From Vicinamibacteria bacterium (GTDB lineage Bacteria; Acidobacteriota; Vicinamibacteria; Marinacidobacterales; Marinacidobacteraceae): a stretch of DNA of 64,000 nt. Below, piece by piece: positions 1,860-24,905 of the stretch (its first letter is position 1; every line of letters begins with the position of its first letter). A program made the translations under genes and the position numbers. Location: NCBI GenBank assembly GCA_963555995.3, contig OY821641.1:3008001-3072000 (forward strand), read 5' to 3'. The notes under the pieces are model-generated. The model was not told the origin of the DNA. It did not search any database and saw only the letters and a list, made by a program, of their open reading frames with translations.

Positions 1860-4298
1860 TTGACGGGGAGTGCGGGCCGGCCGCGCCTCGTGGGACTGGT
1901 GGGAACGATCAAGGGACGGGCGTTCCCCATGGACCGCCCATCCCTGACGCTCGGTCGCGACCCGGAGTGCGAGATCGTCCTCGAGCACGCCTTCCTCTCC
2001 CGGCGACACGCAGCCTTCGAACGGGACAGCGCGGGCCGCGTCGTGGTCCGTGACCTCGGGTCCACCCAGGGGACCTGGGTTCATGGGTCGCGCATCGAAG
2101 AGAGTCCCCTGCGCCACGGCGACGTCGTCGGTTTCGGCCCCGAGGGGATCGTCAGGTTCCGGTTCGAGGTCGCGGCGGCTCGTCCGCGCCCGCCGTCCGA
2201 CCGCCCGTCCCAACCGTCCGTCCTGACGATCGGCCGGGCGCCCGACAACGACGTCGTGCTCGACGCTCCCGGCGTTTCGCGGCGCCACGCCCGCATTGAC
2301 TACGCGACCGGGGAGCCGCGTCTTTCGGACGCCGGGAGCCTGAACGGCACCTTCGTGAACGGCGAGCCCGTCCGGGGAGCCACTCCGCTGGCCCCGACGG
2401 ACCTCGTCTTCCTCGGCGGGTGCCTGCTCCGGGTGGACGGCCGCGAGGTATCGAGCCGCGATCTCGGCGGCAGCCGCCTGACCGCTTCCGGCCTGACGAA
2501 GTCCTACGGCGAAAAGACGGTGCTCCACGACGTGTCCTTCGCCATTCTTCCGAGGGAGTTCGTCGGCCTGATGGGACCTTCCGGCTGCGGCAAGTCCACG
2601 CTGATGGACGCCCTCAACGGGCTTCGTCCGGCCACCCGCGGCGCGGTGTTCATTGACGAGCTCGACCTCTACGGGAACTTCGACGCGGTGCGGCGTTCCA
2701 TGGGCTACGTGCCCCAGCAGGACATCCTCCACGACGCGTTGACCGTCGAGCGGACGCTCCACTACGTCGCGCGGCTCCGCCTGCCCGAACACACCTCCCG
2801 GAGGGACGCCCAGGAGACCATTGACGAGGTGATCCAGGCGGTGGGACTGGCGGAACATCGCGAGACCACCTTCAAGCAGCTCTCGGGAGGCCAGCGCAAG
2901 CGGCTCAGCCTGGCGATGGAACTCCTGACCAAACCGAAGTTCCTGTTCCTTGACGAACCGACGTCACCGCTCGATCCGGAGACCTCCGAGAACCTGATGG
3001 TGCTGTTCCGGCAACTGGCCGACGAGGGCCGCATCCTCGTGATGGTCACGCACAAGTTCGAGAAGTTCGAGCTGATGCACCAGATCCTCCTGCTGACCCG
3101 GGGCGGACATCTCGCATACTTCGGCCCGCCGAAGGACGCGCTCCGGTACTTCGACTGCGAGAAACCGAGCGGGCTCTACCGCCAGGTCGGCGCGCGGGAA
3201 CCGGCCGAGGTGAGTCAGGCGTTCCGGGCGTCGGGCGACTTCCGCAACCACGTCACGGCCCGCGTCCATGCGGGAGCGGCGGTCGGCGCGACGGGCGACC
3301 GCGGGACCGCGGCGGCCGCCCCGGCGCGTTCCTCCGGGTTCCGGCAGTGGCGAATCCTCACCGAGCGCTACCTCGAGACCAAGCTCAAGGACAAGCGCAA
3401 CACGCTGCTGCTGATCGGCCAGGCACCGGTCATCGCGTTCGTCCTGTCGCTGATCGCGAGCGGCACGGTCAGCGACGCGAAGACCCTCTTCATCGCCGCG
3501 ATCATCGCCGTCTGGTTCGGAGGGAACAGCGCGATCCGCGAGATCGTCGCGGAGCAGCCGATCTACCGGCGGGAACGGCTGGTCAACCTGAAGATCCCGG
3601 CGTACTTGGGCTCGAAGTTCGCGGTCCTGGGAGGCATCACGGTCGTGCAGTGCCTGCTCTTCGTCGGAACGCTCGTCGGCTTCGAAAGGCTGGCGTCGGA
3701 GGATGCGGTCGCCGTGGCCGCCACCCTCTGCCTGACCGCGTTCGGGGGCGTCGGCCTGGGCCTGCTCTGCTCCGCGGCGGTCAATTCGTCGGAGAAGGCC
3801 ATGAGCGTGCTGCCGCTCATCCTCATTCCCCAACTGCTCCTCAGCGGCTTCATGAAACCGCTCGACGATTTCTACGTGAACCCCCTCGACCAGACCCCGG
3901 CGACGGAGGAGCAGTACCTCGAATACAAGCGGCTGACGTCGCCGGAGGCGTCCGCCGAGCCGCCGCCCCCCGGGGTCCCGCCGGGCGCCGCCGGCGAGCC
4001 GGTCACGATGATGGAAGGGCTCGGCAACGTGAGACTCGCGAGCGTCATGATTCTCGCCCGGTGGTCGGTGGACGCGCTGGTGCATTCCGTGAGCGCCGCG
4101 AACCCGGAGACGCGCGACCGGCTGGCGAGCCGGTTCTACGTCGCCGCGTACGAGGAGGTCTGGGACGGCGGGTCGGCGGCCGCGGTCGAGGAGGCGTTCC
4201 GGCGTCACCTGTACCTGAACTGGTTCGTGCTGCTCCTGACCACCGGGGCGTATCTCTGGCTGGCGGGCAGGGCGCTGCGGTCCAGGGACAGCCTCTGA
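1860..4298 (+). CDS. Two-FHA-domain ABC transporter (ATPase + ABC-2 permease; Rv1747-like architecture)
   Basis: Two FHA motifs (LGR..SRRHA..GSTQGT; IGR..SRRHA..GSLNGT), Walker A GPSGCGKS, LSGGQ signature, LFLDEPT, and C-terminal TM helices. The start codon is uncertain. Confidence 0.9.
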   Translation: MTGSAGRPRLVGLVGTIKGRAFPMDRPSLTLGRDPECEIVLEHAFLSRRHAAFERDSAGRVVVRDLGSTQGTWVHGSRIEESPLRHGDVVGFGPEGIVRFRFEVAAARPRPPSDRPSQPSVLTIGRAPDNDVVLDAPGVSRRHARIDYATGEPRLSDAGSLNGTFVNGEPVRGATPLAPTDLVFLGGCLLRVDGREVSSRDLGGSRLTASGLTKSYGEKTVLHDVSFAILPREFVGLMGPSGCGKSTLMDALNGLRPATRGAVFIDELDLYGNFDAVRRSMGYVPQQDILHDALTVERTLHYVARLRLPEHTSRRDAQETIDEVIQAVGLAEHRETTFKQLSGGQRKRLSLAMELLTKPKFLFLDEPTSPLDPETSENLMVLFRQLADEGRILVMVTHKFEKFELMHQILLLTRGGHLAYFGPPKDALRYFDCEKPSGLYRQVGAREPAEVSQAFRASGDFRNHVTARVHAGAAVGATGDRGTAAAAPARSSGFRQWRILTERYLETKLKDKRNTLLLIGQAPVIAFVLSLIASGTVSDAKTLFIAAIIAVWFGGNSAIREIVAEQPIYRRERLVNLKIPAYLGSKFAVLGGITVVQCLLFVGTLVGFERLASEDAVAVAATLCLTAFGGVGLGLLCSAAVNSSEKAMSVLPLILIPQLLLSGFMKPLDDFYVNPLDQTPATEEQYLEYKRLTSPEASAEPPPPGVPPGAAGEPVTMMEGLGNVRLASVMILARWSVDALVHSVSAANPETRDRLASRFYVAAYEEVWDGGSAAAVEEAFRRHLYLNWFVLLLTTGAYLWLAGRALRSRDSL

Positions 4299-4385
4299 CG
4301 GACGTGGGACTCCAGTCCACGCGATCGTCGCCACGACGACCGGCGGCGGTGGCGGGGTGCTGATAGTTTTTCCTGGAGGCTGACG

Positions 4386-6818
4386 ATGGTCTGCAGGAAT
4401 TGCGGTCGGCGAGTGGGAGGTGGCGCAGGGCCCTGCGTGTGGTGCGGAGCCGAGAGCGGCGCCGGCGGCCCACCGGACGGCAAACACGACGCCCGCATCG
4501 GCACCACCCTGGAGGGCAAGTACCGGCTCGACGCCCGGATCGGCGCCGGCGGCATGGGCGCCGTCTATCGCGCGACGAGGGTCACGATCGGAGATCGGGT
4601 CGCCGTGAAGATCCTGCACGCGGACCGGCTCCGGGACCCCGAGGCCCCGGAGAGGTTCCGGCGTGAGGCGCGGGCGGCAGCCAGGCTCAAACATGAGAAC
4701 GTCGTGACGATCCACGACTTGGGCGTGACAAACGACGGCACGCCCTACCTGGTGATGGAGCTCGTCGAAGGCGACTCCCTGCGGCATCTGATCGAGCGGG
4801 ATGGCCCGCTCCCGCCGTCGCTCGCGGCGGAGATCCTCGCGCAGGTCTGCTCCGCACTCGACGAGGCGCACGCTCAGGGGATCGTGCACCGGGACATCAA
4901 GCCCGACAACATCCTCGTGACGCGGCGACCGGCGGGGCTGCATGTGGAGGTGCTCGACTTCGGCATCGCACGGGTGGGCTACATGGCGCCGGCGGGGGAC
5001 CTGACGCAAGTGGGCCGGGTCCTCGGCACGCCGCACTACATGTCGCCGGAACAGTGTCTCGGAGAGGAACTCGACGGGAGGTCGGACCTCTACAGCATGG
5101 GTGTCGTTCTCTACGAGATGCTGTCGGGGACCGTGCCGTTCGATGCGACGACGGCGATGGGCATCGTGGTGCAGCACGTGAACGACGCGCCGCCCCCGCT
5201 GCATGAGCGGAAGCCGGACGTTCCGCCGGCGGTCGAGGCGGTCGTGGACGGGGCGCTCCGGAAACGGCGCGAGGACCGGCCGGCGAGCGCCGGTGCGCTG
5301 GCGACGCAACTGACGCGCGCCGTAGCGGACGCAGCCGGGACGCGGCCGCCGGCATCCGCCGGCGCGGGTACTCGACGGCCGACCGGCGGTCCGGCGCCCA
5401 CGGTGCAGATGGGGGCGGCGGGAACCGGGGGCCCCGGGGGAACCGGCGCGGCCGGCGGTGGCCGCCGGCGGCGGAGGGTCGGATTCTGGACGGGAGTGGC
5501 CGCCGCGGCGGCGGTGGCGACGACGGTGCTCGTGCTCGACGAGGGGTGGTTGCCGTGGCGCAGGGACACGGGACAGCCGAAACCCGCAACGGCCGGCGCC
5601 GATGCGTCTCCGGTCAAGCCGGAGGTTCCGGCGAGCGCGCCGGAAGCAAGCGTTGCGGCGGACGCGGCCGCACCCCGGATGGAGGAAGGAACTGCATCGC
5701 GGACGCCGGAGCCGGAACGACCGCCGGGCCGGGCGCCGGCCAGCGCCGTTCCTCCCGCCGCCCCGGCCCCGGCGCCCGCCGCCGCGAATCCGCCGGCCCG
5801 CAGGCCGGCGTCGGCGTCGGCGCGCGTGGGCAGCCTGACGATTCGGGCGCTGCCGGGGAGCGCCGTGCAACTGGACGGCGTGGACACCGGAACGACGGAC
5901 GACTCGGGCATCCTCGGCGTGACCGGGATTCCGGCCGGCCGGCACCTGCTGATGGCGCGGAAGGAGGGCTACGCCGACGCGCAGGCCATCGTGAGCGTGG
6001 TCGCGGACCAGTCGGACGTGGTGGAACTGTCGCTGGTCGCGTTGCCGGGGGCGCTCACGGTCACCGCCAACACGCCGGACGTGACGGTGCAGATCGAGGG
6101 CGTCGGTGAATACCGCCTGCCGGTGACGGGACTGGAGGTCCCCGCCGGACTGCAGCGGGTGGCGGCGAGCAAGCCGGGGTTCCTGCCCGTGGAGGACGCC
6201 GTCGAAGTCCGGAGCGGGAAGGCGGCGACGCTGGAACTCGTGCTGGAACGCGTTCCCCCGGAGGTGGCCCTGCAGGAGGCCCAGGGTCTCTTCAACGTGC
6301 GGCAGTATCGGGACGCGGCCCGCGCCGCCGAGGCGGTCGTGACCGAATACGGCGATTCCGGCGAGGCGTATCTCCTGCTCGGAAAGTCAATGCACGAACT
6401 GGGAAGATTCGACGACAGCGCGAACTTCCTGGGACGGGCCATCGAGCTCGGTCAGGCGGTCGAACTGCCCGCAAAGCACCGCCATGGCGGGTTGGGGCTT
6501 CGAGACGGTTTCTGCGAAGGCGTGATCGCCGTGAGCCGGAGCGTGGTCACCTTCCGGTCAGCGGCGGGACTCGACCACAGCTTCGTCACCACCCCGGACC
6601 GGATCCGCGCGGTAAGCCTCCGGGATGACCGGATCGCCATGAGGATCGCGGTCCTCGAAGCCAACCGGGAGCGGGAGCGCAACTTCGACTTCATCCATCC
6701 GGACACGGTGCAACGGGCGGCGGACGACCGGGGGTTGCTGACCGAGCTCTCCTGCCGGCGCTGCGATGCGTCGTTGACGGTGCTCCTCGCGCTGCTGCAA
6801 GAGGCCCGCGGGTTCTGA
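4386..6818 (+). CDS. Hanks-type Ser/Thr kinase: N-terminal Cys4 ribbon, TM, PEGA repeats, TPR-like segment, C-terminal beta domain
   Basis: GAGGMG, VAVK, HRDIKPDN, DFG and GTPHYMSPE are intact. CRNC..CVWC at the N-terminus, a hydrophobic span, and PEGA-like GRHLLMARKEGY repeats. Confidence 0.92.
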   Translation: MVCRNCGRRVGGGAGPCVWCGAESGAGGPPDGKHDARIGTTLEGKYRLDARIGAGGMGAVYRATRVTIGDRVAVKILHADRLRDPEAPERFRREARAAARLKHENVVTIHDLGVTNDGTPYLVMELVEGDSLRHLIERDGPLPPSLAAEILAQVCSALDEAHAQGIVHRDIKPDNILVTRRPAGLHVEVLDFGIARVGYMAPAGDLTQVGRVLGTPHYMSPEQCLGEELDGRSDLYSMGVVLYEMLSGTVPFDATTAMGIVVQHVNDAPPPLHERKPDVPPAVEAVVDGALRKRREDRPASAGALATQLTRAVADAAGTRPPASAGAGTRRPTGGPAPTVQMGAAGTGGPGGTGAAGGGRRRRRVGFWTGVAAAAAVATTVLVLDEGWLPWRRDTGQPKPATAGADASPVKPEVPASAPEASVAADAAAPRMEEGTASRTPEPERPPGRAPASAVPPAAPAPAPAAANPPARRPASASARVGSLTIRALPGSAVQLDGVDTGTTDDSGILGVTGIPAGRHLLMARKEGYADAQAIVSVVADQSDVVELSLVALPGALTVTANTPDVTVQIEGVGEYRLPVTGLEVPAGLQRVAASKPGFLPVEDAVEVRSGKAATLELVLERVPPEVALQEAQGLFNVRQYRDAARAAEAVVTEYGDSGEAYLLLGKSMHELGRFDDSANFLGRAIELGQAVELPAKHRHGGLGLRDGFCEGVIAVSRSVVTFRSAAGLDHSFVTTPDRIRAVSLRDDRIAMRIAVLEANRERERNFDFIHPDTVQRAADDRGLLTELSCRRCDASLTVLLALLQEARGF

Positions 6819-7083: not shown

Positions 7084-7659
7084 CTACCAGGAGCCGAACG
7101 ACGGGCCGAGACCGCCGAAAAACCCGGACAAGCCCAGAACGATCGCGGGCACCACCGCCGCGATCAGCACGATCAGCACCGCCTTGTCCGTCGTGCAACC
7201 GGACATGTCCTTGATGGCGAATACGTGCAGAACCAAACAGTAAATGCCCCCGACGAAGCCGCCCAGCAACGGCACGATCCCGAAGACCAGGGGTGCGGCA
7301 GCGAACATCTGTGCCCGAACCCAATCCGGGTAGGACGGCAGGCCGTAGGCATCCGCTTCACCGAGGGCTCGCCCTGTCAGGAACCTGCAGACGCACGCGT
7401 GAAAGACCACCGACACCAGCCCAACCAACGGATATCTCACACGGAACGTTGCGACCAGGGTGCCGAGGCTGCCTGCCAGCGCGAACCCGATCAGAAACAC
7501 GAGCAAACTCTGCCGGGTCTCGGGAAAGTCCGCGATCGCGCGGAAGCTCCCAGGCTTGAGAGACATGACTGCCGTGACCCGCTCCAGCAATTTGCTACCG
7601 GGAGGAGCCGCCGGGATCTCTGTCGTGGGAGGATCCGGAAAGGGATTGCCAGTCGTCAT
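7084..7659 (-). CDS. Yip1-family-like membrane protein
   Basis: 191 aa with about 5 TM segments. Yip1-like pattern: PGSFRAIA...FAAAPLVFGIVPLLG...FAIKDMSGCTTDKAVLIVL. Confidence 0.65.
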   Translation of the reverse strand: MTTGNPFPDPPTTEIPAAPPGSKLLERVTAVMSLKPGSFRAIADFPETRQSLLVFLIGFALAGSLGTLVATFRVRYPLVGLVSVVFHACVCRFLTGRALGEADAYGLPSYPDWVRAQMFAAAPLVFGIVPLLGGFVGGIYCLVLHVFAIKDMSGCTTDKAVLIVLIAAVVPAIVLGLSGFFGGLGPSFGSW

Positions 7660-8253: not shown

Positions 8254-11199
8254 TTAACTCCTCGGCTGGAACGCAGCGGAATAGCAGGTTGTCTCCGTAC
8301 CGCGCGCGCTGACGATCACTGCATGCTCCGTTGGCTCTCGCTGGCCCAACTGCACGCTTACTTCCGGAAGCGGCGCTTCGCCAACTGCGATGATCTCGTC
8401 CCCGTGCAACAGTGCTATGGGCCCGATCGAAGCTCCCGCCCCCATCTCACTTCCACACCGACTCACCGGGCGCACGGAAACGAGGCCAGGGTGCACCACG
8501 TTCGTGTCTTCGGACCCAATCGTCCAAGCGTGAGCCTCTCCGCCAGCCAGGCAACGACAGCGCTCCTGCTCGTTCTGCAGGCGTCCGGCTGGAGTGACCC
8601 AATATGCTGCCACCTGCGCGAACGTGTCGCCCAGGATGTCCCCCCCTCCCCCAAGAGAGACGAGGTACTCACCAATCTGGGTGCCCACTGAAAGTCTCGC
8701 AATCATCCACGACCGGTACTCTCCGCTTCCTTCGACCTCCGGTGGGACTCGGCTCACTTGCTCCACGAAGAACTCTCCGCCAATGCGTTGGCTATCAGGG
8801 CCGGTCAAGCTCAGGATGAGCCGCTCGCGCGATCGAGCCGTCACCATGAGCGTGCCCTTCGCCATCCGGGAGGGCCGTTGTCCGGGCCTCCCGAAAGTCT
8901 CGTCGTCATCTCGGAGGATTCGCAGCGTGTGGCCATCCTGAATCATCCGCTCCATAGCGTCACCGGGGACTAGCTCCTCCGCCACCGTGTCCAGACGGAT
9001 CATGTACGGGATGTCGCCACTACGATCTGTCAAGTTGTGCTCTTGGGAGACCCTAACGATGTGGGTGGAATCGCGTTCAAGCCGTCGTTTCAGGAAATAC
9101 GCCCCGTCACCACTGTAGATCAGGTTCGCCAGGTGTGGCGGTTGTCCGCTTGAGAACACGAAGATCGATGGCACGAAACCGTCCACTTCCGAGATGAGGG
9201 TCATTCCTATCTCGCTATCCTGTGCACTTTTGAATTCCCAGAGCTGGCCTTCGATCGGAAGCTGGTTCGCCCTGTCGACCCCGCGGTCGAGAGACAAGGC
9301 GTTCGTGGACCTCAAATGGATGCCGTAGTTGCAGTCAGCACCAGCCTCTTGGCACTCCGGGTCCGCCCCGTTGAGACAGACGTCGTGATCGTTAGCAGTT
9401 ACCTGCACGAGGTGTTCTCCAATCCAATCCGACGGCCACACGAGTTCCACCGATCTCTCACCCGACGGACCGACGGCTGCGGCAAGCACATTGCCATCCG
9501 GTGACATCAATCGAATGCACGGAGTGAACTGACTCGCCGAAGCGACCAGCACTACGCCCACAGACAGGTGGTCGCTCTCGGACGCGTCGATGCTCCAGTA
9601 CTTCTTCTGCGCTAGCGAAGCCCTATGCAGGGTATTCGGGCGGAGAACCTCGGGGCGTCCTATTTCAGCCTCGATCCCATACGATCCCGGGGTCCCGGCG
9701 GTGATAAGAATCAGGGGCGCCCGGGTTTCCGTTTCATTGCCCTCCTGCTGCTGGCGGAGGTATGCGGCTTGGGTCAACGCGGGAGCGCCCGGATATGACG
9801 GCAGGTCATCGCCGTCCGGCGTATAGAGAGTGACTTGTGGATTGAAGCCCTCTCCTTCTGGAGTTATGTCGACATTGATGACCGGGCTGAGGGCGAGCTG
9901 GTCTTGATCGACCGGATTCAACTCCCATGCGTGCACCGTCTGCTGGTCATACTGGACGTTTCTCCTAGTCGTGAATTTCCCGGACGCAGAATCGAGATCC
10001 AAAGATGCCTGACGCAGTGCCTCGGCCGTGATGGCGGTGTCGCCGCTGCCACCACCTCGCGCTTGAACGACTGCCAAATACGTGGCGTCCGACGGAAGCG
10101 GCCGAGCGACCCTGGCCGCTGTTGAGTGGGTATCGCCACCGATGTCGTCGTCACTTGCCAGCCATGCACTGCTCGCAGCCGGACCTAGGCGGAAGAGCCC
10201 CAAGAAGGGGTCGAAGTCGTCCGACGCGGCAGTGACGCTCACTACGTCTGACTCTTGGCCGGCAAATGTCCAGGCGACCAGAGGTATGCGAGAGTCGCCA
10301 TGCCACCAAGGCGGTTCCAGATGCGGGACTTCCTCCAAAGCGGCGTGGGAAGGAATGCCGTGGGTCAAGGTTTGAACATCGAAGACATAAGCCGTGAGTT
10401 CATAAGCACCAGCCGACGCACTGAAGTCCTTCCCCGAGACATGGATGGCATAGGAGCCGGGTGTGAGCGCGGGCAGCACCATCCACGGATTCTTGCCCGG
10501 TCCGGCATCGGCGTCCTGAGCCAATGCACTCTCTCCCGACGTCAGGACCAAGTCTGGGTCGAAATCATCAGAATGCGCGGCCAGACTGATGAACTGGCCC
10601 TCCCGCATCTCGTCTTCCCCCACGTCCAGGACCCAGTTGGCCGTCCCTGATTCTTCCGGAGTGCAGTCGCTTTCCGAGGAATCGCAAGACTCGAGAACTC
10701 CCAGAACGGGGGCATTGAGTTGAAGGGCGAGGCTCCCAAGTGGCCGCATTCTTAGCGCTGTCCGTTCCACGACCGGTTTGCCCTCACAGTCGGTTGGATG
10801 CCAAGCCAGCCGATATGTATCGTCCCGCGGAAGCCAATGCACGAGTCGGTGGTGCAGTCCGGGTTTGGTTATCGCGTGTCTCTCTTCGTCATCAAAGGAA
10901 AGCTGGCATTCCTCCCGATCAGTGGCCGCACTGATGATCACTGCATCCCCCGCTCGCCCCTCGAAAGTGAAGAGCCCTGACTGCTCTTCGGTGACCGCCT
11001 CACCGCGAGAGACCCAGCCAGAAACCAGTTCCCACGTACCGTGCAGGTCGGTCAGAGTGATCAGGACCGGAATGGGGACCAAGTAAGGGGCAAACCGGCG
11101 CAGGCCGCGTCCACCCTTTGTCAGCTTGCCGGCGAAGCGTTTCCAACTGATCATCGAGAAGCGCCTCGAGGAGCCGCCTTCCTTACTGGAACTGACCAT
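8254..11199 (-). CDS. Membrane-anchored protein with multiple pre-peptidase C-terminal (PPC)-like beta domains
   Basis: 981 aa with an N-terminal hydrophobic span. Repeated motifs S.DFDP.L.L...A.D.D.G...LP..G.Y. Visibly more A/T-rich than the flanks. Confidence 0.7.
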   Translation of the reverse strand: MVSSSKEGGSSRRFSMISWKRFAGKLTKGGRGLRRFAPYLVPIPVLITLTDLHGTWELVSGWVSRGEAVTEEQSGLFTFEGRAGDAVIISAATDREECQLSFDDEERHAITKPGLHHRLVHWLPRDDTYRLAWHPTDCEGKPVVERTALRMRPLGSLALQLNAPVLGVLESCDSSESDCTPEESGTANWVLDVGEDEMREGQFISLAAHSDDFDPDLVLTSGESALAQDADAGPGKNPWMVLPALTPGSYAIHVSGKDFSASAGAYELTAYVFDVQTLTHGIPSHAALEEVPHLEPPWWHGDSRIPLVAWTFAGQESDVVSVTAASDDFDPFLGLFRLGPAASSAWLASDDDIGGDTHSTAARVARPLPSDATYLAVVQARGGGSGDTAITAEALRQASLDLDSASGKFTTRRNVQYDQQTVHAWELNPVDQDQLALSPVINVDITPEGEGFNPQVTLYTPDGDDLPSYPGAPALTQAAYLRQQQEGNETETRAPLILITAGTPGSYGIEAEIGRPEVLRPNTLHRASLAQKKYWSIDASESDHLSVGVVLVASASQFTPCIRLMSPDGNVLAAAVGPSGERSVELVWPSDWIGEHLVQVTANDHDVCLNGADPECQEAGADCNYGIHLRSTNALSLDRGVDRANQLPIEGQLWEFKSAQDSEIGMTLISEVDGFVPSIFVFSSGQPPHLANLIYSGDGAYFLKRRLERDSTHIVRVSQEHNLTDRSGDIPYMIRLDTVAEELVPGDAMERMIQDGHTLRILRDDDETFGRPGQRPSRMAKGTLMVTARSRERLILSLTGPDSQRIGGEFFVEQVSRVPPEVEGSGEYRSWMIARLSVGTQIGEYLVSLGGGGDILGDTFAQVAAYWVTPAGRLQNEQERCRCLAGGEAHAWTIGSEDTNVVHPGLVSVRPVSRCGSEMGAGASIGPIALLHGDEIIAVGEAPLPEVSVQLGQREPTEHAVIVSARGTETTCYSAAFQPRS

Positions 11200-14799: not shown

Positions 14800-14938
14800 C
14801 CCCCGTCAGCCGCGGCTGGTTCACGGCATGGCTCGGTCAGATCGTCCAACTCGTTTCGGCCTTCTTCGGTGACGAGGCGCTGCCGGCTCGTCCCCGCAAA
14901 GTTCATCCGGGCGTCGTCCTTCTGCTTCATCCTCTCCA
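14800..14938 (-). pseudogene. 3' remnant of the vWA-TM-J-like gene
   Basis: RMKQKDDARMNFAGTSRQRLVTEEGRNELDDL matches the C-terminus of the ORF ending at 22174. Confidence 0.75.
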
Positions 14939-14987
14939 GTTCGCTTCCAGATCGCTGTCGTGTCACCAGGGGTTCGCGCCGACCGGC

Positions 14988-16622
14988 TCAGGACGTCACC
15001 TTGATCGTGACGTTCCTCCTCCTCTTCCGCTCCATGTCCTCGGCTGTCAGGAGCGCGTCGCTCCTCAGGACCGCGGTGGCGGTCTGATGGGTCGTGAGGT
15101 CCTCGCCGTACACCGTCAGCAGCCCGTCCTCACTCAGGGTGAACCGGACCACGATCTGGGAGCCCCTTGGCAACGGTCTGGTGAAGGCGACGTGAGTGGT
15201 TCCGATCACCCAGGACGGATCGAAATCGAACGGCTCGTCGCGCGTCCGCTCGAGGTTCTCGATGCAGGCCACACTCACGCCCGTTTGCCCGTCCTTCACC
15301 GTGCGATTCCTCATCTCGCGCTCCGCCGGAACCGGTTCATCCATCAGGATGAGGTTCAGGCACCGCTTCCTCCCAACATCCTCATAGTAGAGATCGGTGC
15401 CGTAACTCTTGGAGGTGACGTTGCGGATCGTCTTCCGACTGAGGTCCCGGACCGTCGGCAGCGAAAGGCCAAGGTCCGCGGCCACGGTCCTTTCGGCCTG
15501 CTCACGGGGAAAACCTCGCTCAATCAAGGCCTCGATCGAGTCGCCCATCTCGCACTTCAGCCCCATCAGCGCCGCCCCCTTGGCGACGACTTCATCGGGA
15601 TCGAAGGAGAGCGCCCGGAACTCGGGGAACCGCCGCTCCAGCGCCTCCCGCACCTGCGGCATGTGCGTCGAGCCGCCGACCAGGAGCATCTTGTCAATCT
15701 GCTGATGACCCTTTTCGCGAGCGATCTTCAGCAATTCCTCGGTGAGCATGAGGGTGTTCTCCAGCAGGCCGTAGGTCAGGTCCCGGAACGCCTCGCGGGT
15801 GACTTCGACCGTTTCGCGGGTCCCCTCGTGGTAGAGAACGGTACGGACCTTCTCCCTGCTGCTCAGGCCGATCTTCACCCCTTCGGCCGCCTCCATCAGG
15901 TACTCCCAGGTCTCCTTGTCATCCTTCACTGCCTGCTTCGACACCCTCGCGACCGTGGCCAACCGTTCCGCGAAGGACTCGGCGAGGGCCTCGTCCCAGT
16001 TCCTGCCGCCCAGTTTGTGATCTCCACCGGTGCACACGACCGCGATGGAGCCCGCCTTGATGTCGAGCACGGTGATGTCGAAGGTGCCGCCGCCGAGGTC
16101 ATAGACCAGGATCGTCTCGTCGCCGCCCGTCTCCAGCAGTCCATACGCCACCGCCGCCGCCGTCGGTTCGGGAACGACGTAGCGGACGATGAGCCCCGCC
16201 AACTCTCCCGCCTGCTTCGTTGCCTCCTTCTGCGCCACGCCGAAGTACGCCGGACAGGTGATGACCGCCTCGGTGATTGCCTCGCCGGTGATGGTTTCGG
16301 CGTCCCGCACCAACCGCTGGAGGATGTGCGCGGAAACGTCGGTGGGCGTGACCTCCCGCCCCTGCATGATCCTCTTCCACTCGGGATCCCCCATGTGGCG
16401 CTTCACCGCGGAGACGACGAGTTCGGGGCTGAGCGGAGCCTCGGCCCTGGCCGACTTGCCGACGGCCACGTTGTCCTCCGACTCGAAATAGACGACCGAG
16501 GGCGTGGTCCGGTCGTTTTCGGAATTCGGGATCACGACCGGCCGGCCGTTCTCCTCCACCCGCGCGATGCACGAGAAAGTCGTCCCGAGGTCAATCCCGA
16601 AGACCCGTCGCGCCCCACTCAT
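14988..16622 (-). CDS. Hsp70-family protein B (non-canonical, lid-less)
   Basis: [28 protein letters not shown] and LVGGSTHMP. 544 aa, ending soon after the substrate-binding beta domain. Confidence 0.93.
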   Translation of the reverse strand: MSGARRVFGIDLGTTFSCIARVEENGRPVVIPNSENDRTTPSVVYFESEDNVAVGKSARAEAPLSPELVVSAVKRHMGDPEWKRIMQGREVTPTDVSAHILQRLVRDAETITGEAITEAVITCPAYFGVAQKEATKQAGELAGLIVRYVVPEPTAAAVAYGLLETGGDETILVYDLGGGTFDITVLDIKAGSIAVVCTGGDHKLGGRNWDEALAESFAERLATVARVSKQAVKDDKETWEYLMEAAEGVKIGLSSREKVRTVLYHEGTRETVEVTREAFRDLTYGLLENTLMLTEELLKIAREKGHQQIDKMLLVGGSTHMPQVREALERRFPEFRALSFDPDEVVAKGAALMGLKCEMGDSIEALIERGFPREQAERTVAADLGLSLPTVRDLSRKTIRNVTSKSYGTDLYYEDVGRKRCLNLILMDEPVPAEREMRNRTVKDGQTGVSVACIENLERTRDEPFDFDPSWVIGTTHVAFTRPLPRGSQIVVRFTLSEDGLLTVYGEDLTTHQTATAVLRSDALLTAEDMERKRRRNVTIKVTS

Positions 16623-16715: not shown

Positions 16716-18344
16716 TCAGTTCGACACCGTGATGCCAGCATGGCGTCGCGTCTCCTCCCGCAACTCCTCTTCCGTCTTGATCGCGTCGCTCTTGAGCTTC
16801 GTCTCCGCTTCCTGCTGGGTGGTCAGATCCTTGCCGTACATGGTCAGCAGTCCGTCCTCGCTCAGGTGGAAGCGGACGATCAACGGGGAATTGCTCGGCA
16901 GCTCCCTTGCGAAGGTGATGTGGGCTTCTCCGACCACGTCGTTTTCGGGATCGAAGTCCACGGTACCACGCTCGCGCTCAACGTTCTCGACGCACCGAAG
17001 GCGGACTCCGTTTCCTGCGTGGGCGGTGGAATACTTCTTCTCCGTCTCCATCGGAACCTGATCGTCCACCAGGATGAGGTTGTCGCACATGGTTTTTCCG
17101 CCCCCCACGTTGACAACCACGCCGAAGCTCTTGGAGGTGACGTTCTTGATCTCGGTTTCCGTCACGCGCCGGGTGACCGCCAGCGAGACGCCGCTCTCGC
17201 GAGACACCTGCTCTACGGCCTGATCGTGGCGGAAACCACGCTTGATCAAGTCGTCAATGGACTCGCCCAGCGCGAACTTCAGACCCATGAGCGCCGCTCC
17301 CTTGGCGACGACCTCGTCGGGATCGAAGGACTGGATTTCGAAATCGGGAAACCGCCGCTGCAGAGCCGCCTTCACCTGCGGCATGTGCGTGGAGCCGCCG
17401 ACCAGGAGCACCTTGTCAATCCGCGAATGGCCCTTTTCCCGAGCGACTTCCAGCAACTCCTCGGTGAGCATCAGGGTGTTTTCCAGCAAACCCTCGGTCA
17501 ACTCGACGAACGTGTCACGGGTGAGTTCCACCTTCGCGCGGGTCGTGTCGTGGTACAGGATCGTTCGGACCTTCTCCTTGCTGCTCAGGCCGACTTTCGC
17601 GATCTCCGCTTCCAGCAGCACCTTCTCCCGGGTCTCCGGGTTCTCCTTCACCTCGTCCTTCGACACGCCCGCGGCATTGGCCAACTGCTTGAAGAACCAC
17701 TCCGCGAGAGCCTCGTCCCAGTTCTTGCCGCCGAGGTAATGGTCCCCGCCGGTGCAGACGACCGAGATGTCCTTCTCCTTGACGTCGAGCACCGTGATGT
17801 CGAAGGTGCCTCCGCCAAGGTCGTAAACGAGGATGGTCTGGTCATCGGAAGCTTCCAGCATGCCGAACGCCACCGCGGCCGCGGTGGGCTCCGGAATGAC
17901 GTAGCGCACGTTGAGGCCCGCAATCGTTCCCGCCTGCTTCGTCGCCTCCTTCTGGGCCACGCCGAAGTAGGCCGGGCAGGTGACCACCACATCCTCGACT
18001 TTGTCGGTCGTGATGGTGCGCGCGTCCTGAACCAGGCGTTTGAGGATGTGGGACGAGACGACGGTCGGGTCCACCTCCTCGCCGTGCATGACCCTTTTCC
18101 ACTCGGGATCGCCCATGTGGCGCTTCACCGTGGCGACTACGAGATCCGGACTCAGCGGGGCCTCCGCCTTGGCCGACTTGCCGACGGCCACGTTGTCCGC
18201 GGACTCGAAATAGACGACGGACGGGGTGGTGCGATCGTTTTCGGAGTTCGGGACCACCACCGGCTTGCCGTGTTCGTCCACGTGGGCGACGCACGAATAC
18301 GTGGTTCCGAGGTCAATCCCGTAAACCCTCTTGGGCGCACTCAT
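16716..18344 (-). CDS. Hsp70-family protein A (non-canonical, lid-less)
   Basis: MSAPKRVYGIDLGTTYS follows an AAAGGAG RBS. Same Hsp70 motifs; 542 aa; paralog of protein B. Confidence 0.93.
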   Translation of the reverse strand: MSAPKRVYGIDLGTTYSCVAHVDEHGKPVVVPNSENDRTTPSVVYFESADNVAVGKSAKAEAPLSPDLVVATVKRHMGDPEWKRVMHGEEVDPTVVSSHILKRLVQDARTITTDKVEDVVVTCPAYFGVAQKEATKQAGTIAGLNVRYVIPEPTAAAVAFGMLEASDDQTILVYDLGGGTFDITVLDVKEKDISVVCTGGDHYLGGKNWDEALAEWFFKQLANAAGVSKDEVKENPETREKVLLEAEIAKVGLSSKEKVRTILYHDTTRAKVELTRDTFVELTEGLLENTLMLTEELLEVAREKGHSRIDKVLLVGGSTHMPQVKAALQRRFPDFEIQSFDPDEVVAKGAALMGLKFALGESIDDLIKRGFRHDQAVEQVSRESGVSLAVTRRVTETEIKNVTSKSFGVVVNVGGGKTMCDNLILVDDQVPMETEKKYSTAHAGNGVRLRCVENVERERGTVDFDPENDVVGEAHITFARELPSNSPLIVRFHLSEDGLLTMYGKDLTTQQEAETKLKSDAIKTEEELREETRRHAGITVSN

Positions 18345-18444: not shown

Positions 18445-19308
18445 TCACTTCGGCCTCTCGAATCGGTACACGGCGACCTTGGCCGTCTCCATGACTTGCC
18501 CGTTCCACACGAAGCCGAGCTGGAGGCACTCGTGGACGGTCCGGTCCTGATCCTTCTCGTGCGTCGGCCTCACGCTCACGATCGTCTGCATGCGGGCATC
18601 GAACGGTTCGCCGGGCTCCGGACGATGGGGATCGAGACCGAAGTTCTCTAGCAGAACCTCCATGTCCTCCTGGAAGTTCGCCAGGAGATCGAGCGCCCGC
18701 TCGGGGGTGAGTTCCTCAGGCTTCCTGCTCCAGGCGGCGGCCTGCTTCCCCATGTCGCGCTGAAGACTCAGCACGGCGCGGACCAACGGTCGAACGGCCT
18801 TCCCGAGGAGGTCGCGCTTGAACTCCTCGTTTTCCTTGTGGAGGGTGTCAATCGTCTGCTGTTTGGTCGCGTCGTAACGCAGCTTGGCCTCGAACTCGTT
18901 GAGGATCCTGCCGAGCAGCGCTTCCATCGAGACGAGACGCTCATTGAGTCGCTCTTGGGCAGCGTCGCCATTCGTCGCCTCGCTCCCGTCGGACGTGGCC
19001 GACCCGGCGGCCGGGACGGAGCGCTGCGCGCGAGCGCCGCCCGTATCGGGGGCGGTTGGCGGACATGTGCTCTCGGCAGGCTTTTCGGGTTGGTCAGGGC
19101 CGGCTCCGGTTGCCGGGCCGCCGCCATCCCCGGCGGCGTCGCCGGCCCCCGCTGGAACAGGCGTCTCGCCCGGGGCATCGAGCTCGGCGGCGGAGTTCTC
19201 AGGCGCAGAATGAGGCAACGTTTCGATTGCCGGCGGTTGTTCTGCTCCGGCGGAGGCCGGACCCATGGCCGGGGTATCGTTCCGTCGCCGGTTCAACCAA
19301 CCCATCAC
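18445..19308 (-). CDS. GrpE-like nucleotide exchange factor with a long disordered N-terminus
   Basis: Coiled coil followed by GEPFDARMQ...VHECLQLGFVWNGQVMETAKVAV (GrpE beta-head pattern); directly upstream of the Hsp70 genes. Confidence 0.8.
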   Translation of the reverse strand: MMGWLNRRRNDTPAMGPASAGAEQPPAIETLPHSAPENSAAELDAPGETPVPAGAGDAAGDGGGPATGAGPDQPEKPAESTCPPTAPDTGGARAQRSVPAAGSATSDGSEATNGDAAQERLNERLVSMEALLGRILNEFEAKLRYDATKQQTIDTLHKENEEFKRDLLGKAVRPLVRAVLSLQRDMGKQAAAWSRKPEELTPERALDLLANFQEDMEVLLENFGLDPHRPEPGEPFDARMQTIVSVRPTHEKDQDRTVHECLQLGFVWNGQVMETAKVAVYRFERPK

Positions 19309-19374
19309 CAGGGGATCCTCACGCCGGCCGAGGGGCTCGGCCGGTGGACGCCAACAGCGAACTCAACTCGACCG

Positions 19375-19523
19375 GTGTCGAGTCGGTACTTGCCCTCCAG
19401 GGTAGTGCCGACACGGTGGTCGTATTCGTCATCCGGCGGACCCTCGGCGCCTCGCTCGGCTCCCCACCAGACGCAAGGCCCCGTGCCGCCATTCATCCGC
19501 CTACCGCAGTCTCTACAGATCAT
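19375..19523 (-). pseudogene. 5' remnant of a Ser/Thr kinase paralog
   Basis: MICRDCGRRMNGGTGPCVWWGAE...VGTTLEGKYRLD matches the N-terminus of 4386-6818, and the homology then stops. Confidence 0.8.
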
Positions 19524-19610
19524 TGCCAACTGTTGGGCTGGCAACATTATCATTATTTTTCTCTCGATTGCCACCGGCGGTCCCGCGCACTCCGGCGGGC
19601 TCGCCAGCGG

Positions 19611-19774: not shown

Positions 19775-20227
19775 AGCGGCTTGCCAAGACACGCTGCGGT
19801 TCTAACTGTCCACCTTCGCCATGATCCTGTTCCGGGGGCTGCAGGAGGCGCTGCGCAACACCCGGCTGGCCGTGGCCGGCGCAGAACCGATCCGGCTCCG
19901 CCTGCTGAAGATCGGAGTTCTGGTCCGGATATCGGTGCGGCGCGTCCGCCTCGCCATGTCCTCCGCCTGCCCCGACCAGGACTGTTCCGCCTCGCCTGCG
20001 AACGCCTGAACCGCACCTCAGGCCCGCCACACGGCCGCCCCCCCGAGAGGCGGCGCCCTGTGCCCAAAGGTGCTCGTCACCCCGGATGAGCGAGCCCAGC
20101 CCCCCCAGCGGATACCGCATCCGACCCGACGCCTACCTCCGCACTCGTGCCAAACGGTGCCGCCCGCTCCCCACGCCTCCCGAAACCTCCAATTCCGCCG
20201 TCCCGCCAGCAGTATGAGAAGTCCGGG
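19775..20227 (+). mobile_element. IS1380-family remnant (transposase C-terminus and right end)
   Basis: IRLRLLKIGVLVRISVRRVRLAMSSACP is typical of IS1380 transposase C-termini. The segment ends in TGAGAAGTCCGGG followed by TTAG. Confidence 0.7.
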
Positions 20228-20786: not shown

Positions 20787-20952
20787 ACGGCTGCGGCGGT
20801 GGCCTATGGACTGCTGGAGACGGGCGGCGACGAGACGATCCTGGTCTATGACCTCGGCGGCGGCACGTTCGACATCACCGTGCTCGACATCAAGGCGGGC
20901 TCCATCGCGGTCGTGTGCACCGGTGGGGATCACAATCTGGGCGGCAGGAACT
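20787..20952 (+). pseudogene. 166-bp inverted copy of the Hsp70-B interior
   Basis: Matches the reverse complement of 15998-16163 with about 5 mismatches by eye ([29 protein letters not shown]...). Confidence 0.9.
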
Positions 20953-22174
20953 CACCTCCTCGGACCGCGTGGCCATTGTGGACTTCGACCACGTGGCGAG
21001 GGTTCACTTGCCGCTCACCTCGCTTGCCGACGAACGGGCGCGGTCCCGGGTCGAATCCGCAATTGACGAGGTGGACAGTGACGGCGGCACCGATCTCGGG
21101 GCAGGGCTCGCCGCCAGCTTCGCCGAGTTGCAGCGGGCGTCCGCCAGCGAGGGGCGCGATCGGCATGTGATCTTCCTCACCGACGGTGTAGGGCAATACT
21201 CACCAGAGGTGCTCGAAGCCGGAATCGCTGCGAAAGCAACCGTTCATACGGTGGGTCTCGGCGATGGAGTGGATGCGGCTCTGCTCACGGCGATCGCCAC
21301 CGCTACCGGAGCGTCGTACTACGCGGTGAGCGATGCCTCCGATCTGGTGGACGTCTTCGAGAGCGTCTTCGACCAGCAGTTGGCCATGAACGCGGTCGCG
21401 GCGGGCGGCGAGCGGGGAGAACTCCTGACGTCGGGCTGGCTGCTGCTGGTGGTGCGCACCCTGAGTTGGGGGGTCATGGGTCTGCTCATCGGCATGGGGC
21501 AGGGGTTGGCGTACAACACCCGGGAGGACTTCCGGGCCTGCGCCTTTGGAGGGCTCGCCGGCGGGCTGGCCGGTGGCGCGCTGTTCAACCCGGTCAGCCA
21601 ACTTGCCGTTCTGGGCTCGGGCCTCTCGGCACGAGCGGTCGCGGACGTGATCGTGGGCGCGACCATCGGTGGCTCGATGAGGATTGCGCAGACCACGCTG
21701 GCCGAGTCCGACAACCCGAAGACCACGATGCTCACGATTCTGCCGGAGCCCCCTCGGGATGCCGGATTGAGGGCTGACGGATCCGGAAACACGAGGCTCG
21801 AAGACCGGGGCGCGAGCCATCTGGGGCTACGGGATTTCCTCCGTCACGGATTCGGGAAGAGCCGAGGGAGTTCGGCCGCGCCCGGAGCAGCCGTGTCCGG
21901 CGCCGGGACCACCGGACGAAAGGTGGAGGAAATCTTCCGGGGGCTGACGGCCCTGGGCGAGCGGGATCACTATTCCTTCCTCGGCGCGGATCGGAGTTGG
22001 ACGCTGGCGCAGCTCCAGAAGACGTGCCGCGAGATCCATTTGGCGCGGATGAAGCAGAAGGACGACGCCCGGATGAAACTTGCCGGGAAGATCAGGCAGC
22101 GTCTTGTCACCGAAAAAGACCGCAAGGAATTGGACGAACTGATCGAGAAGTACCATGAAACCAGTCGCGACTGA
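20953..22174 (+). pseudogene. 5'-truncated vWA domain - TM helices - J-like domain protein
   Basis: [17 protein letters not shown] and VHTVGLG are vWA motifs, but the N-terminal DxSxS is absent. Gly-rich TM helices and a C-terminal DHYSFLG domain. Joined out of frame to the Hsp70 fragment. Confidence 0.75.
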
Positions 22175-22209
22175 CGGGGGAAGGGAGTTCCCGCAAATCT
22201 GAGGAAGCC

Positions 22210-24158
22210 ATGTCCGGCGGCGAGAACACGAGACTCCAGGTAGAGCGGATCTACCGGGAACTTCGTGCGCTGGGCGAGGAGGATCACTATTCGTTTCTCG
22301 GCGCCGCGAGGGGTTGCCCGAAGGACGACCTCTGGAACCGGTGCGGGGAGGTTTACAAAGAGAGCAGGAAGGCTCGGGCTGACGACCGGAAGACCCTTGC
22401 CGGCAAGCTCCGGAAGTACTTCCGCACCGAGGAGAGCCGCAGCAAGTTCGATGCGCTGATCGAGAAGTGCCGTCAGGAAGAACACGCCGCGGCGGCACGT
22501 GGAGCAGCGGACGCCCGACGGGCCAGGGCGGAGGAGGAGCGGCGGGCTTGGGATGCCGGCGGTACGCGGCTTGGCAGGTGGCGCCGCCGGAGCGCCCTCG
22601 CGACGACGGTGTTGCTCGGGGTCTGGGTCGTGCGGAGCTGCCTTTCCGGCGACCAGGCTTCGGGCCCGCAGATGGCCAACGATCACCCGTGCGGTCAGGC
22701 GGGCGGGACCCTCGTGCAGGCCGGCTCCTCCACACCCGGTCGCCTGGACCAGCCCAACGAGCAGGACTGTTTCGTCGTCGAGGTTCCCGGCGGGTCCACC
22801 TTGACGCTCGAGACCTCCGGAACTACGGACACCATGGGTGTACTTCGCGGAAACGGAGTGGAAGCCAGAGACGATGACGGCGGTTCGGACGCCAACTTCA
22901 GGATTTCGGAGCGCGTGTCCGCTGGCACGGATTTCCTTGCCGTGGTCGGCTACGACGGAACAGCAACGGGCGACTACGCGCTGAGCGTCCAGGTGGCTCC
23001 CGATTCCGCCGCGGCTCCTGCTCCCGTCGCTCCCGCGCCTGATTCTGCCCGTCCCGCGCCGACCCCGACGGTGCGCCGACCGACCGCTCCCGAACCCGCC
23101 CCAGCGTCCCCGGCGCCCACCGTCTCGAATCCGCCCGCCAGCAGGCCGGCGCCGGCGTCGGCCCGTGAGGGCAGCTTGACGATTCGGGCGCTGCCGGGGA
23201 GCGCCGTGCAACTGGACGGCGTGGACGCCGGAACGACGGACGACTCGGGCATCCTCGGCCTGCCGGGGCTCCAGGCCGGCCGGCACCTGCTGGTGGTCCG
23301 GAAGGAGGGCTACGCCGACGCCCAGGCCACCGTAAGCGTGGTCGCGGGCCAGTCGGAGGTGGTGGAACTGTCGCCGGTCGCGTTGTCGGGGGCGCTCACG
23401 GTCACCGCCAATGTCCCGGACGTGACGGTGCAGATCGAGGGCGTCGGCGAGTACAGCCTGCCGGTGACGGGACTGGAGGTCCTGGCCGGACTGCGGCGGG
23501 TGGCGGCGAGCAGACCGGGATTCCTCCCCGTCGAGGACGCCGTCGAAGTCCGTGGCGGAGAAGCGGCGACACTGGAACTCGTGCTGGAACGCGTCCCCGT
23601 GGAGGTGGCCCTGCGGGAGGCCCAGAGTCTCTTCAACGTGCGGCAGTATCGGGACGCGGCCCGCGCCGCCGAGGCGGTCGTGACCGAAAACGGCGATGCC
23701 GGAGAGGCGTATCTCCTGCTCGGGAAATCGGTGTACGAGTTGGGAAGACTCGAGGACAGCGCGAACTTTCTGGGACGGGCCATCGAGCTCGGCCAGGCAG
23801 TCGAGCTGCCCGCGAAGCACCGGCATGGCGGTTTGGGGCTTCGAGCCGGTTTCTGTGAGGGCGTGATCGCCGTGAGCCGGAGCGTGGTCACCTACCGGTC
23901 AGCACAGGGACTGGACCACAGCTTCGTCACCACCCCGGACCGGATCCGTGCGGTCACCTTCCGGGATGACCGGATCGCCATGAGGATCGCGGTCCTCGAA
24001 GGCAATCGGGAGCGGGAGCGCAACTTCGACTTCATCCATCCGGACGCCGTGCAGCGGTCGGCGGACGAACGGGGTTGAGGACCGAGCTCTACTGCCGGCG
24101 CTGCGATGCGTCGTTGACGGTGCTCCTCGCGCTGCTGCAAAGCGCCCGCGGGTTCTGA
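22210..24158 (+). CDS. J-like - TM - PPC - PEGA - TPR-like paralog with a 1-nt frameshift near the 3' end (stop at 24078)
   Basis: Inverted paralog of 12764-14770. CGGGGTTGAGGACC here versus CGGGGGTTGCTGACC in the kinase; the homologous tail continues to TGA at 24158. Confidence 0.8.
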
Positions 24159-24368
24159 CGGGCTGTGACAACATCCACGCAACACGGTTCTCCCAGTGGC
24201 GGCTTCGGCGCTCGCGCGGGTTTCACCACCGGCTGTACAACCATCCCTCATGCGGACGGACAGTTCGGGTCGCGGGCCGTGTTGACCGCTGGGCCGCGTC
24301 GGGCGGCAGGTCGCTCGTGGCTGATGCAGCTCGGCTTCCGTGATTTGTTCTGACCAGGAAGGAGTGCC

Positions 24369-24905
24369 TTGACCGAGGAGAATCGGAACCTGACAGCGGC
24401 GGCGCAGCGCTGGGCCGAGCTGAGGTCCCGGATCGCCACCTACAGAAGAGAGCCCTTGGCGGTCGTCAAGGCCGATGCGGCCGCGGCCGTTTCCGAGGCT
24501 TGGTCCAGGTTCCTGAAGCTTGGCTTCATGAGCAAGCTGTGGGTCGTGTGGGTGGCATTCGTCGTCAGCTACTGCCTGTTGTTGGTGGTCGGGCGCGGTG
24601 TTTTCGACCTTGGCAATTGGGTGGAGTCCCTGTTCCTCGTGGGCGGGTTGGCCATCTTCCCTCGTTGGTACTCTGTCCGGCACCTTTCCTCGAGAGGTGC
24701 CGGCCTGCACATCCTGAGTAGGCTGTGGGTCGTGTGGGTGGTGTTCGTCGTCAACAACGGCCTGTTCTTCGTGATCTTGGGAGATGGTGTTTTCGCCTTG
24801 ACAAGTTGGGTGTTTTTCCTGGGCTTCGTGGGGGCTCTGGTGGTCCTCCCTCGTTTGTTCTACTTTTGGCTCTTTCCGTGGAAGCTCTTGACTCGAAAAT
24901 CGTGA
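24369..24905 (+). CDS. Membrane protein, paralog of 11560-12540 without the zinc ribbons
   Basis: QRWAELRSRIA...AWSRFLKLGFMSKLWVVWV...VVLPRL aligns with the paralog; AAGGAG RBS before the TTG start. Confidence 0.7.
   Translation: MTEENRNLTAAAQRWAELRSRIATYRREPLAVVKADAAAAVSEAWSRFLKLGFMSKLWVVWVAFVVSYCLLLVVGRGVFDLGNWVESLFLVGGLAIFPRWYSVRHLSSRGAGLHILSRLWVVWVVFVVNNGLFFVILGDGVFALTSWVFFLGFVGALVVLPRLFYFWLFPWKLLTRKS

Follow-up and report, generated by a model that had tools for sequence, protein, structure and literature searches.

Lid-less Hsp70s, a GrpE-like factor and membrane-anchored J-like proteins encoded in a Vicinamibacteria genomic island: a probable GTPase-less derivative of the GAP1-N2 Hsp70/GrpE theme

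Introduction

The closest described relatives of the locus reported here form the "second theme" of the GAP1-N2 double-GTPase conflict systems, an Hsp70/GrpE set that Kaur 2020 (eLife, PMC7159879) gives as a prediction only and on which no experiment was found in the literature. The locus lies in a 64,000-nucleotide stretch of a Vicinamibacteria bacterium (Acidobacteriota; assembly GCA_963555995.3, contig OY821641.1, positions 3,008,001 to 3,072,000 of the forward strand), called the window throughout, and comprises genes for a GrpE-like factor, two lid-less Hsp70s (Hsp70-A and Hsp70-B) and putative membrane receptors with a J-like domain. The reading we lean towards is a private Hsp70 switch docked on the receptors, in a locus derived from the GAP1-N2 Hsp70/GrpE theme but without its GTPases. 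A preliminary description of the window had proposed an undescribed system; the Hsp70/GrpE/J set is instead the second theme of Kaur 2020 (PMC7159879). Only for the GTPase-less membrane form was no account found, in a literature search that excluded most subscription papers.

Two further arrangements share elements with the locus. The first is HscC of Escherichia coli with DjlB and DjlC, where a specialised short Hsp70 likewise adjoins membrane-anchored J proteins (Mayer 2021, PMC8215388) and may, with them, assemble or guard membrane proteins. The second is the PknF/Rv1747 pair (Spivey 2011, PMC3138270), sharing an adjacent and co-oriented Ser/Thr kinase and two-FHA ABC exporter. Bacterial DnaK derivatives in general are called largely unexplored in a 2026 review (PMC13580251).

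Organization of the locus

The window was analysed by open reading frame (ORF) listing and by Pfam and NCBIfam scans, including 14 ORFs of the island. The minus strand carries, in order, a kinase 5' remnant, GrpE, Hsp70-A, Hsp70-B, the 3' remnant of a vWA-transmembrane (TM)-J gene, receptor 1 and a TM/Zn-ribbon gene, with intergenic gaps of 93-223 bp. The plus strand carries an FHA-FHA-ABC gene and an intact kinase at the left end and, at the right end, an IS1380 relic and a 165-bp piece copied from Hsp70-B; these are followed by the vWA-TM-J gene, which has lost its 5' part, by receptor 2 and by a further TM gene. Every gene named in the preliminary description and its co-oriented run were recovered, and neither canonical dnaJ nor hrcA is present locally (scans of the window for PF00226 and HrcA gave nothing). 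The vWA-TM-J gene that it placed in the run is there as a 3' remnant of ~130 bp (about 14806..14942, minus strand; 63% over 43 aa by tblastn, also found by blastn) corresponding to the end of the J-like part only, with no vWA sequence; the vWA-bearing part is on the plus strand (20951-22174). A promoter and terminator scan of the window gave chance-level results, and no RNA data set containing the window sequence was listed.

The lid-less Hsp70s and their GrpE

Hsp70-A (16716..18344, minus strand) and Hsp70-B (14988..16622, minus strand) are proteins of 542 and 544 aa, 64% identical, assigned to a lid-less Hsp70 family by profiles, tree and residue table, with blast for the former and a structure model for the latter. 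They are preceded by the gene of a dedicated GrpE-like nucleotide exchange factor (18445..19308, minus strand; PF01025, E 2e-12, above cut-off). The family was gathered in an alignment-based scan of GTDB genomes from which the best 80 of 563 confirmed matches were taken; four of these loci (L108, L112, L120 and L122) were left out as DnaK, and the remaining 76 family members are the basis of the neighbourhood counts given below. The trees were built on the first 395 residues, the large one leaving out 21 of 29 phylum DnaKs, and the residue table has 83 family rows, leaving out YegD, P0003 and most phylum DnaKs.

Both proteins nest in the starred lid-less clade together with the GAP1-N2-bearing loci L044, L046, L047 and L049. 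This clade is sister to that of the Hsp70-vWA proteins and, in both trees, apart from DnaK, HscA and HscC. Membership in DnaK was rejected (approximately unbiased test, p 5e-60; quick LG+G4 tree, 40 rows), as was the grouping of Hsp70-A with the vWA-fused Hsp70 type (p 2e-31). Identity with HscC was also discarded, HscC falling outside the starred clade in both trees (with one HscC only, on a long branch). Scores against NF001413 were 314-328 bits for a cut-off of 648, and the Atlas search with Hsp70-A returned generic Hsp70 clusters only. Canonical genes were located elsewhere in the genome, dnaK-dnaJ at C1:1171611 and grpE-dnaJ at C1:1547113, which together with the test against DnaK agrees with the preliminary description that this is not the housekeeping dnaK operon; HrcA was not found in the 93%-complete genome. 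The same description treated the Hsp70 pair as a feature of the system. In the trees A and B are a lineage-specific duplication, and all 21 family loci with a membrane J protein have a single Hsp70.

In common with DnaK-DnaJ-GrpE, the window proteins present the nucleotide-binding domain (NBD), the fold of the beta part of the substrate-binding domain (SBD-beta; TM-score about 0.8 to open DnaK), the ATPase residues and a GrpE of the same family. Positions D8, T11, T12, K70, E171, D194, T199, D201 and G342, a set that we take to be the ATP-binding and catalytic residues of DnaK, are kept in 83/83 family rows. Differences from DnaK are an identity of ~35%, the absence of a lid (median of 24 residues past DnaK position 502 in the family vs 137 in DnaK), the replacement of the linker DVLLLD by RKTIRN/ETEIKN, a 32-residue helical insert preceding the linker, and the loss of the J-contact residues. 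The structure model (predicted local distance difference test, pLDDT, 92.9) contains the NBD, the helical insert and SBD-beta, with no lid. In the family alignment R167 and Q378 occur in 0/83 rows and P419 in 83/83, and the SBD-beta groove residues are partly kept. The two lost residues are those by which DnaK contacts the aspartate of the HPD motif, according to Mayer 2021 (PMC8215388). The subdomain-IIB loop has 12 residues in the window Hsp70 and in HscC vs 18 in DnaK. HscC differs in forming a separate clade, in keeping R167, Q378 and part of the lid, and in being described as GrpE-independent (PMC8215388), whereas in the window a GrpE is co-encoded and both lid and HPD are gone.

The J-like domain and the membrane proteins that carry it

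Receptor 1 (12764..14770, minus strand) is intact and comprises an HPD-less J-like domain of the J2 type, a TM segment, a PPC domain, a Pro-rich linker, two PEGA domains and a TPR-beta domain, identified by the J2 profile (E 1e-10), Pfam and J matches in the PDB. Receptor 2 (22210..24078, plus strand) is its inverted paralogue, recognized by blast and by a 703-aa full-length relative (P0286), and is frameshifted near the 3' end in the assembly, the indel at 24070 being seen in runs X1 and X5. The third copy of the domain ends the vWA-TM-J2 gene (20951..22174, plus strand; J2 E 3e-7), which is 5'-truncated and 49% identical to the vWA-TM protein of L045 from residue 149. In L045, L046 and L053, three named Acidobacteriota, the vWA-TM gene is without J2 and is transcribed away from grpE; the gene gained its J2 tail in the lineage of the window. 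TM segments were called by a simple hydropathy threshold.

The soluble J protein of the family has two J-like repeats, J1 and J2, of which the window carries J2 only, in three copies (E 3e-11 to 3e-7 with a J2 profile from family proteins). HPD is found in 0/33 relatives for J1, where HP is kept in 20/33, and in 0/40 aligned copies of J2. The domain has no match to Pfam DnaJ (PF00226) and none in the Atlas at 0.9. In the PDB, J-domains make up 39/41 of the J2 profile matches, the top one being NdhU, with best E of 1e-4 to 1e-3, and the top match of the J2 profile search is P0124, a canonical HPD J-repeat protein. These profile matches indicate that the J-like domain is homologous to J-domains. 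Since the 1083 matches at E 0.001 include ordinary J proteins, they give no family count. Between the two receptors the ratio of nonsynonymous to synonymous substitution rates (dN/dS) of J2 is 0.10, and that of the NBD between the Hsp70s is 0.29; J2 is under purifying selection, as are the NBDs.

The private J-like/Hsp70 pairing of the preliminary description is plausible, with the canonical contact residues lost on both sides and a weak co-fold. Hsp70-B with J2 scored 0.49 vs 0.00 for the best control, with at least 50% of the contacts agreeing between runs and a partner pLDDT of at least 84; in the calibration at 0.60 or less, 18/157 solved complexes pass and both of the passing mismatches (2/215) fall there. 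DnaK-J complexes have been solved, so that the result may reflect memory. The modelled complex lends weak support to direct J2-Hsp70-B binding. The locus would be a natural case of a J/Hsp70 pair in which the HPD-R167/Q378 contact has been dropped on both sides.

Independent J2-TM receptors were identified in L052 (two), P0125 and P0166. L052 is an independent minimal case with the order GrpE-Hsp70-J2/TM-J2/TM; a three-part form (GrpE, Hsp70 and one receptor) is the smallest version and hence the easiest to test. P0125 presents two J2 on an ectodomain like that of the window receptors, at 36%. A different fusion, P0236, joins J1, the family Hsp70 NBD, J1, J2 and TIR in a single protein of 1004 aa, a possible effector-bearing form.

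Gene neighbourhoods and relation to the GAP1-N2 systems

Neighbourhoods of up to 10 kb on each side were compared for the 76 loci, with ORFs called in this analysis. The conserved linkage supposed in the preliminary description is borne out for GrpE (60 loci) and the J-like gene (41), followed by vWA (33), DO-GTPase (27), GAP1-N2 (19), FHA (12) and kinase (6), while FHA-ABC is in none. The full order, GrpE-Hsp70-(Hsp70-vWA)-J/TPR/FNIII-type protein-GTPase-GAP1-N2-TM GTPase, matches the second theme of Kaur 2020 (PMC7159879).

By the same paper (PMC7159879), the window locus and the theme share the Hsp70 clade, the GrpE linkage, a homologous J-like domain, a recurring vWA and a patchy, mobile distribution. 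They differ in four respects. The window locus and its genome are without DO-GTPase or GAP1-N2; the J-like domain is carried by TM proteins whose other domains are PPC/PEGA/TPR or vWA, whereas in the theme it belongs to a soluble J1-J2-ZnR-TPR-FNIII protein; only J2 is present; and the second Hsp70 is a recent duplicate and not of the Hsp70-vWA type. In the 93%-complete genome DO-GTPase (PF19993) has no match above cut-off and GAP1-N2 (PF20013) has 0 matches at E 0.1, in a search whose control was positive in 1/14 genomes. FNIII has no Pfam match in the window, and Pfam also misses FNIII in the soluble J proteins of the family. With these two defining features, DO-GTPase and GAP1-N2, missing, the locus is a derivative and not a member of a GAP1-N2 system.

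The J protein has a TM segment in 21 loci, with variable distal domains (Lcl-C, PEGA-pentapeptide, TonB-C and multi-TM). None of the 21 contains GAP1-N2 or a GTPase at the locus and none an FHA gene. Genome-wide, GAP1-N2 was searched for in 50/80 loci, picked so that the TM-J loci and the loci lacking a local GAP1 were covered: it was identified in 0/20 of the tested TM-J genomes and in 18/20 soluble-J loci (at the locus or in the genome). The association of a TM-anchored J protein with GAP1-N2 absence is suggestive, and the window locus belongs to the TM form. A planctomycete branch (L057, L060, L066, L068-L073, L075, L086, L088 and L094) presents a lid-less Hsp70 and an Hsp70-vWA followed by TM-FHA proteins; in it no J-like gene was detected and GrpE is often several kb off.

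A proposed receptor-docked Hsp70 switch

In the proposed mechanism the membrane proteins would be receptors, probably oriented with the N terminus inside, whose cytoplasmic J-like domain docks the private Hsp70s, and the latter would work as a switch driven by ATP. A cue bound outside, whether from the envelope or from an invader, would pass through the receptors to the Hsp70. Resetting would fall to the private GrpE, and the remodelled J/Hsp70 interface may insulate the circuit from DnaK/DnaJ. With no lid, an Hsp70 would keep hold of its clients for a short time only, which is closer to the behaviour of a switch or scaffold than to that of a general foldase. The parts beyond the TM are highly variable in relatives (PEGA/TPR, TonB-C, TPR-Lcl-C, PEGA-pentapeptide and vWA). 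A conflict or surface-sensing role might be inherited from the GAP1-N2 system, whose own role is a prediction.

Several points weigh against this switch. No experiment on the lid-less Hsp70 family was found in the literature, and the parent system is itself predicted. The locus has no effector gene, and PADLOC matched no core gene, giving generic kinase and ATPase matches only. In the J2 fold search, at a Z of only about 6, helical bundles other than J-domains matched equally well. The receptor TM is weak by hydropathy: of the two thresholds used in the scan, it clears just the lower one. The window also lacks J1, in which relatives keep HP (20/33). In every system tested, losing the HPD motif abolishes stimulation (Mayer 2021, PMC8215388), and J2 may accordingly have no activating effect. 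The split between TM-J and GAP1 reduces to five independent pairs (four concordant, none opposite and one tie; p 0.125), a single Desulfobacterales-like clade supplies 15/21 TM-J loci, and the genomes are for the most part incomplete metagenome-assembled genomes. The locus also shows decay, with an insertion sequence (IS) relic, deletions and a frameshift.

A dedicated folding or quality-control set, in which the J-like domains are tags that let the private Hsp70/GrpE assemble or guard the membrane proteins of the island with no signal relay, is judged unlikely, though it accounts for some of the same data. HscC and its TM-anchored J partners offer a precedent, a circuit at the membrane built on a specialised Hsp70 (PMC8215388), the groove of SBD-beta is in part preserved and an effector is missing. 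The family, however, is outside HscC in both trees, retains GrpE, which is missing from HscC, is lid-less and derives from a system centred on GTPases, and the occurrence of J2 in place of a kinase on one ectodomain suits a signalling role better.

Beyond the receptor-docked switch in this locus, a class of "Hsp70-coupled receptors" may be put forward, as a rather doubtful extension, in which the Hsp70 arm of a GTPase conflict system would have repeatedly been made, by bacteria, a stand-alone transmembrane signalling device with swappable outer domains, an HPD-less J and a co-remodelled, lid-less Hsp70. In the window, with one type of outer domain on both the kinase and the J-like receptors, one cue would give parallel phosphorylation and Hsp70 outputs.

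The kinase and FHA-ABC pair

The left end of the island comprises an FHA-FHA-ABC ATPase-ABC2 membrane exporter of Rv1747-like architecture (1860..4298, plus strand; Pfam FHA x2, ABC_tran and ABC2_membrane) and an intact Ser/Thr kinase-TM-PEGA-PEGA-TPR-beta domain protein (4386..6818, plus strand; Pfam, catalytic motifs and blastp). The exporter has Walker A/B, signature and H-loop, the catalytic motifs of the kinase are intact, and by these motifs both look active. A second kinase copy is reduced to a 5' remnant (19305..19574, minus strand; 77% nucleotide identity to 4386-4535, 150 bp), whose stop codon overlaps the grpE start.

The outer part of the kinase is common to the receptors, with 330 residues shared at 88-89%. 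The 15 homologues of this ectodomain are 11 kinases, three J2 receptors and one that is neither. Because of the shared residues and the predominance of kinases, J2 most likely took over the outer domain of a kinase inside the island. With the outer domain copied from the kinase onto the J-like receptors, kinase and receptors could respond to one cue. The swap of kinase for J2 on one ectodomain is the most specific hint of a J2 signalling role, and predicts signalling rather than folding.

The preliminary description placed kinase, FHA-ABC, vWA and Hsp70 in one integrated conflict or sensing pathway, which now seems distinctly improbable. The ectodomain shared at 88% and the kinase remnant abutting grpE speak for it, together with two contigs of 3,719,154 and 178,780 bp (matching tentative) holding FHA-ABC, kinase, both Hsp70s and a receptor, at 76-96% identity or within 90% clusters. 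These contigs, however, are strains at least 90% identical, so co-inheritance explains their shared content, and a separate contig of 1,761,451 bp has kinase and FHA-ABC with no Hsp70 among the matches listed. The ectodomain homologues are mostly plain kinases (11/15), and the locus counts (kinase 6/76, FHA-ABC 0/76 and, in the TM-J loci, FHA 0/21) do not make kinase or FHA a core part. Most likely the two genes form a PknF/Rv1747-like module of their own that shares the island with the Hsp70 genes; it differs from PknF/Rv1747 in the reversed gene order and in the PEGA/TPR outer domain that its kinase has in common with the J-like receptors (PMC3138270).

The preliminary description also mentioned loci of the TerY type. 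The TerY-P triad consists of vWA, PP2C and kinase. No PP2C family was found among the 14 island ORFs scanned, and this identity was rejected.

The island and its rearrangement

The module sits in a strain-variable genomic island of 23.5 kb flanked by two tandem Vps10/BNR genes (window 1688-25197). Both Vps10/BNR copies are on one contig in at least 7/15 congeners, 0.4-4.9 kb apart vs 23.5 kb here. With a spacing that differs this much within the genus (0.4 to 23.5 kb), the gap between the two genes is an insertion hotspot. GC content at third codon positions (GC3) is 0.68-0.90 in the island genes vs 0.95 in the flank. Hsp70-A was found in 0/60 relatives at 1e-80, J2 in 0/54 genomes of the order, FHA-ABC in 0/27 family genomes at 1e-60, and the ectodomain in 1/54 order genomes. 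Hsp70-B had only weak C-terminal matches (~30%, E 4e-6 or worse) in 400 same-phylum genomes, including the unpublished G024, and a metagenome scan with it gave one locus, a DnaK-like match at 37%.

Positions 22041-24264 repeat 14938-12658 in inverted orientation, at 86%. Before this copy lies an internal fragment of Hsp70-B (20787..20951, plus strand; 165 bp, 97% by nucleotide comparison), the deletion scar of an inverted operon copy, to which the vWA gene is joined out of frame, without ~the first 148 residues of its L045 homologue, the first vWA strand included. The ancestral order would be grpE-A-B-vWA/TM/J-receptor-TM gene, followed in this strain by inverted duplication and reciprocal deletions, which would have broken the vWA gene and left grpE-hsp70A-hsp70B-receptor 1 whole. 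In a related strain the vWA gene still follows Hsp70-B. In run X5, from a study other than that of the best-matching runs, a contig runs from the end of Hsp70-B (14939) to 20951 with 599 other bases in between; as the vWA piece starts at residue 149 of the L045 homologue, these bases would hold the missing start. The joint of Hsp70-B to 20951 is also in X1, X2 and X3, with short sides, and an X6 contig departs from the window at 14941. The possibility that the rearrangement is an artefact of chimeric assembly was rejected, junction 20787 being bridged by window-identical contigs in X1, X2 and X3; these possibly come from the source study, so that this bridging is not independent. For the 14942-14988 junction no bridging contig was seen in the runs examined.

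The deletions, the frameshift, the dispersed repeats, the IS1380 relic and the absence from the 60 relatives would also suit a GAP1-N2 system in decay, a relic drifting in the hotspot after the loss of its GTPases. This explanation is given the lowest probability of all, being opposed by a further 21 TM-J loci without GTPases, spread over several phyla, the purifying selection, the operon order intact in related strains and the retention of all ATPase residues.

Besides the two contigs with FHA-ABC, kinase, both Hsp70s and a receptor, another contig contains three Hsp70s, one of them (P0003) with an inserted vWA 67% identical to that of the window. In P0003 the vWA sits between the first two SBD strands, re-creating the Hsp70-vWA pairing that is C-terminal in the other Hsp70 type of the family.

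Other genes and repeats of the island

Downstream of receptor 1 is a 4-TM protein with three tandem Zn-ribbon repeats (11560..12540, minus strand; ORF, Pfam, repeat comparison and TM scan), the ribbons being encoded by three 97%-identical repeats of ~156 bp (window 11560-12020). Its paralogue without Zn ribbons (24369..24905, plus strand; 54% aa) is the TM protein that follows receptor 2. Island cargo comprises a Yip1-like 4-TM protein (7084..7659, minus strand; E 6e-6, under the Pfam cut-off, and TM scan) and a 981-aa PPC-repeat-like protein (8254..11199, minus strand; weak PPC match). The latter has the lowest GC3 of the island (0.68) and is covered by runs X1, X3 and X6, and barely by X5.

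The C-terminal relic of an IS1380-type transposase is at 19818..20009 (plus strand; PF13701, E 1e-9). The piece 20668-20781 resembles an ATPase fragment but has no Pfam match. A dispersed repeat of ~185 bp occurs in three copies (6875-7064, 7751-7940 and 8072-8256), with well over 100 matches in the genome, some of them in tandem, and other repeat families are near 20494-20569 and 25064-25127. Outside the island, an RNA ligase (PF09414 and PHA02142) converges on an AAA_21 ATPase (window 28612-31536), the C-terminal domain of which resembles defence ATPase-nuclease proteins.

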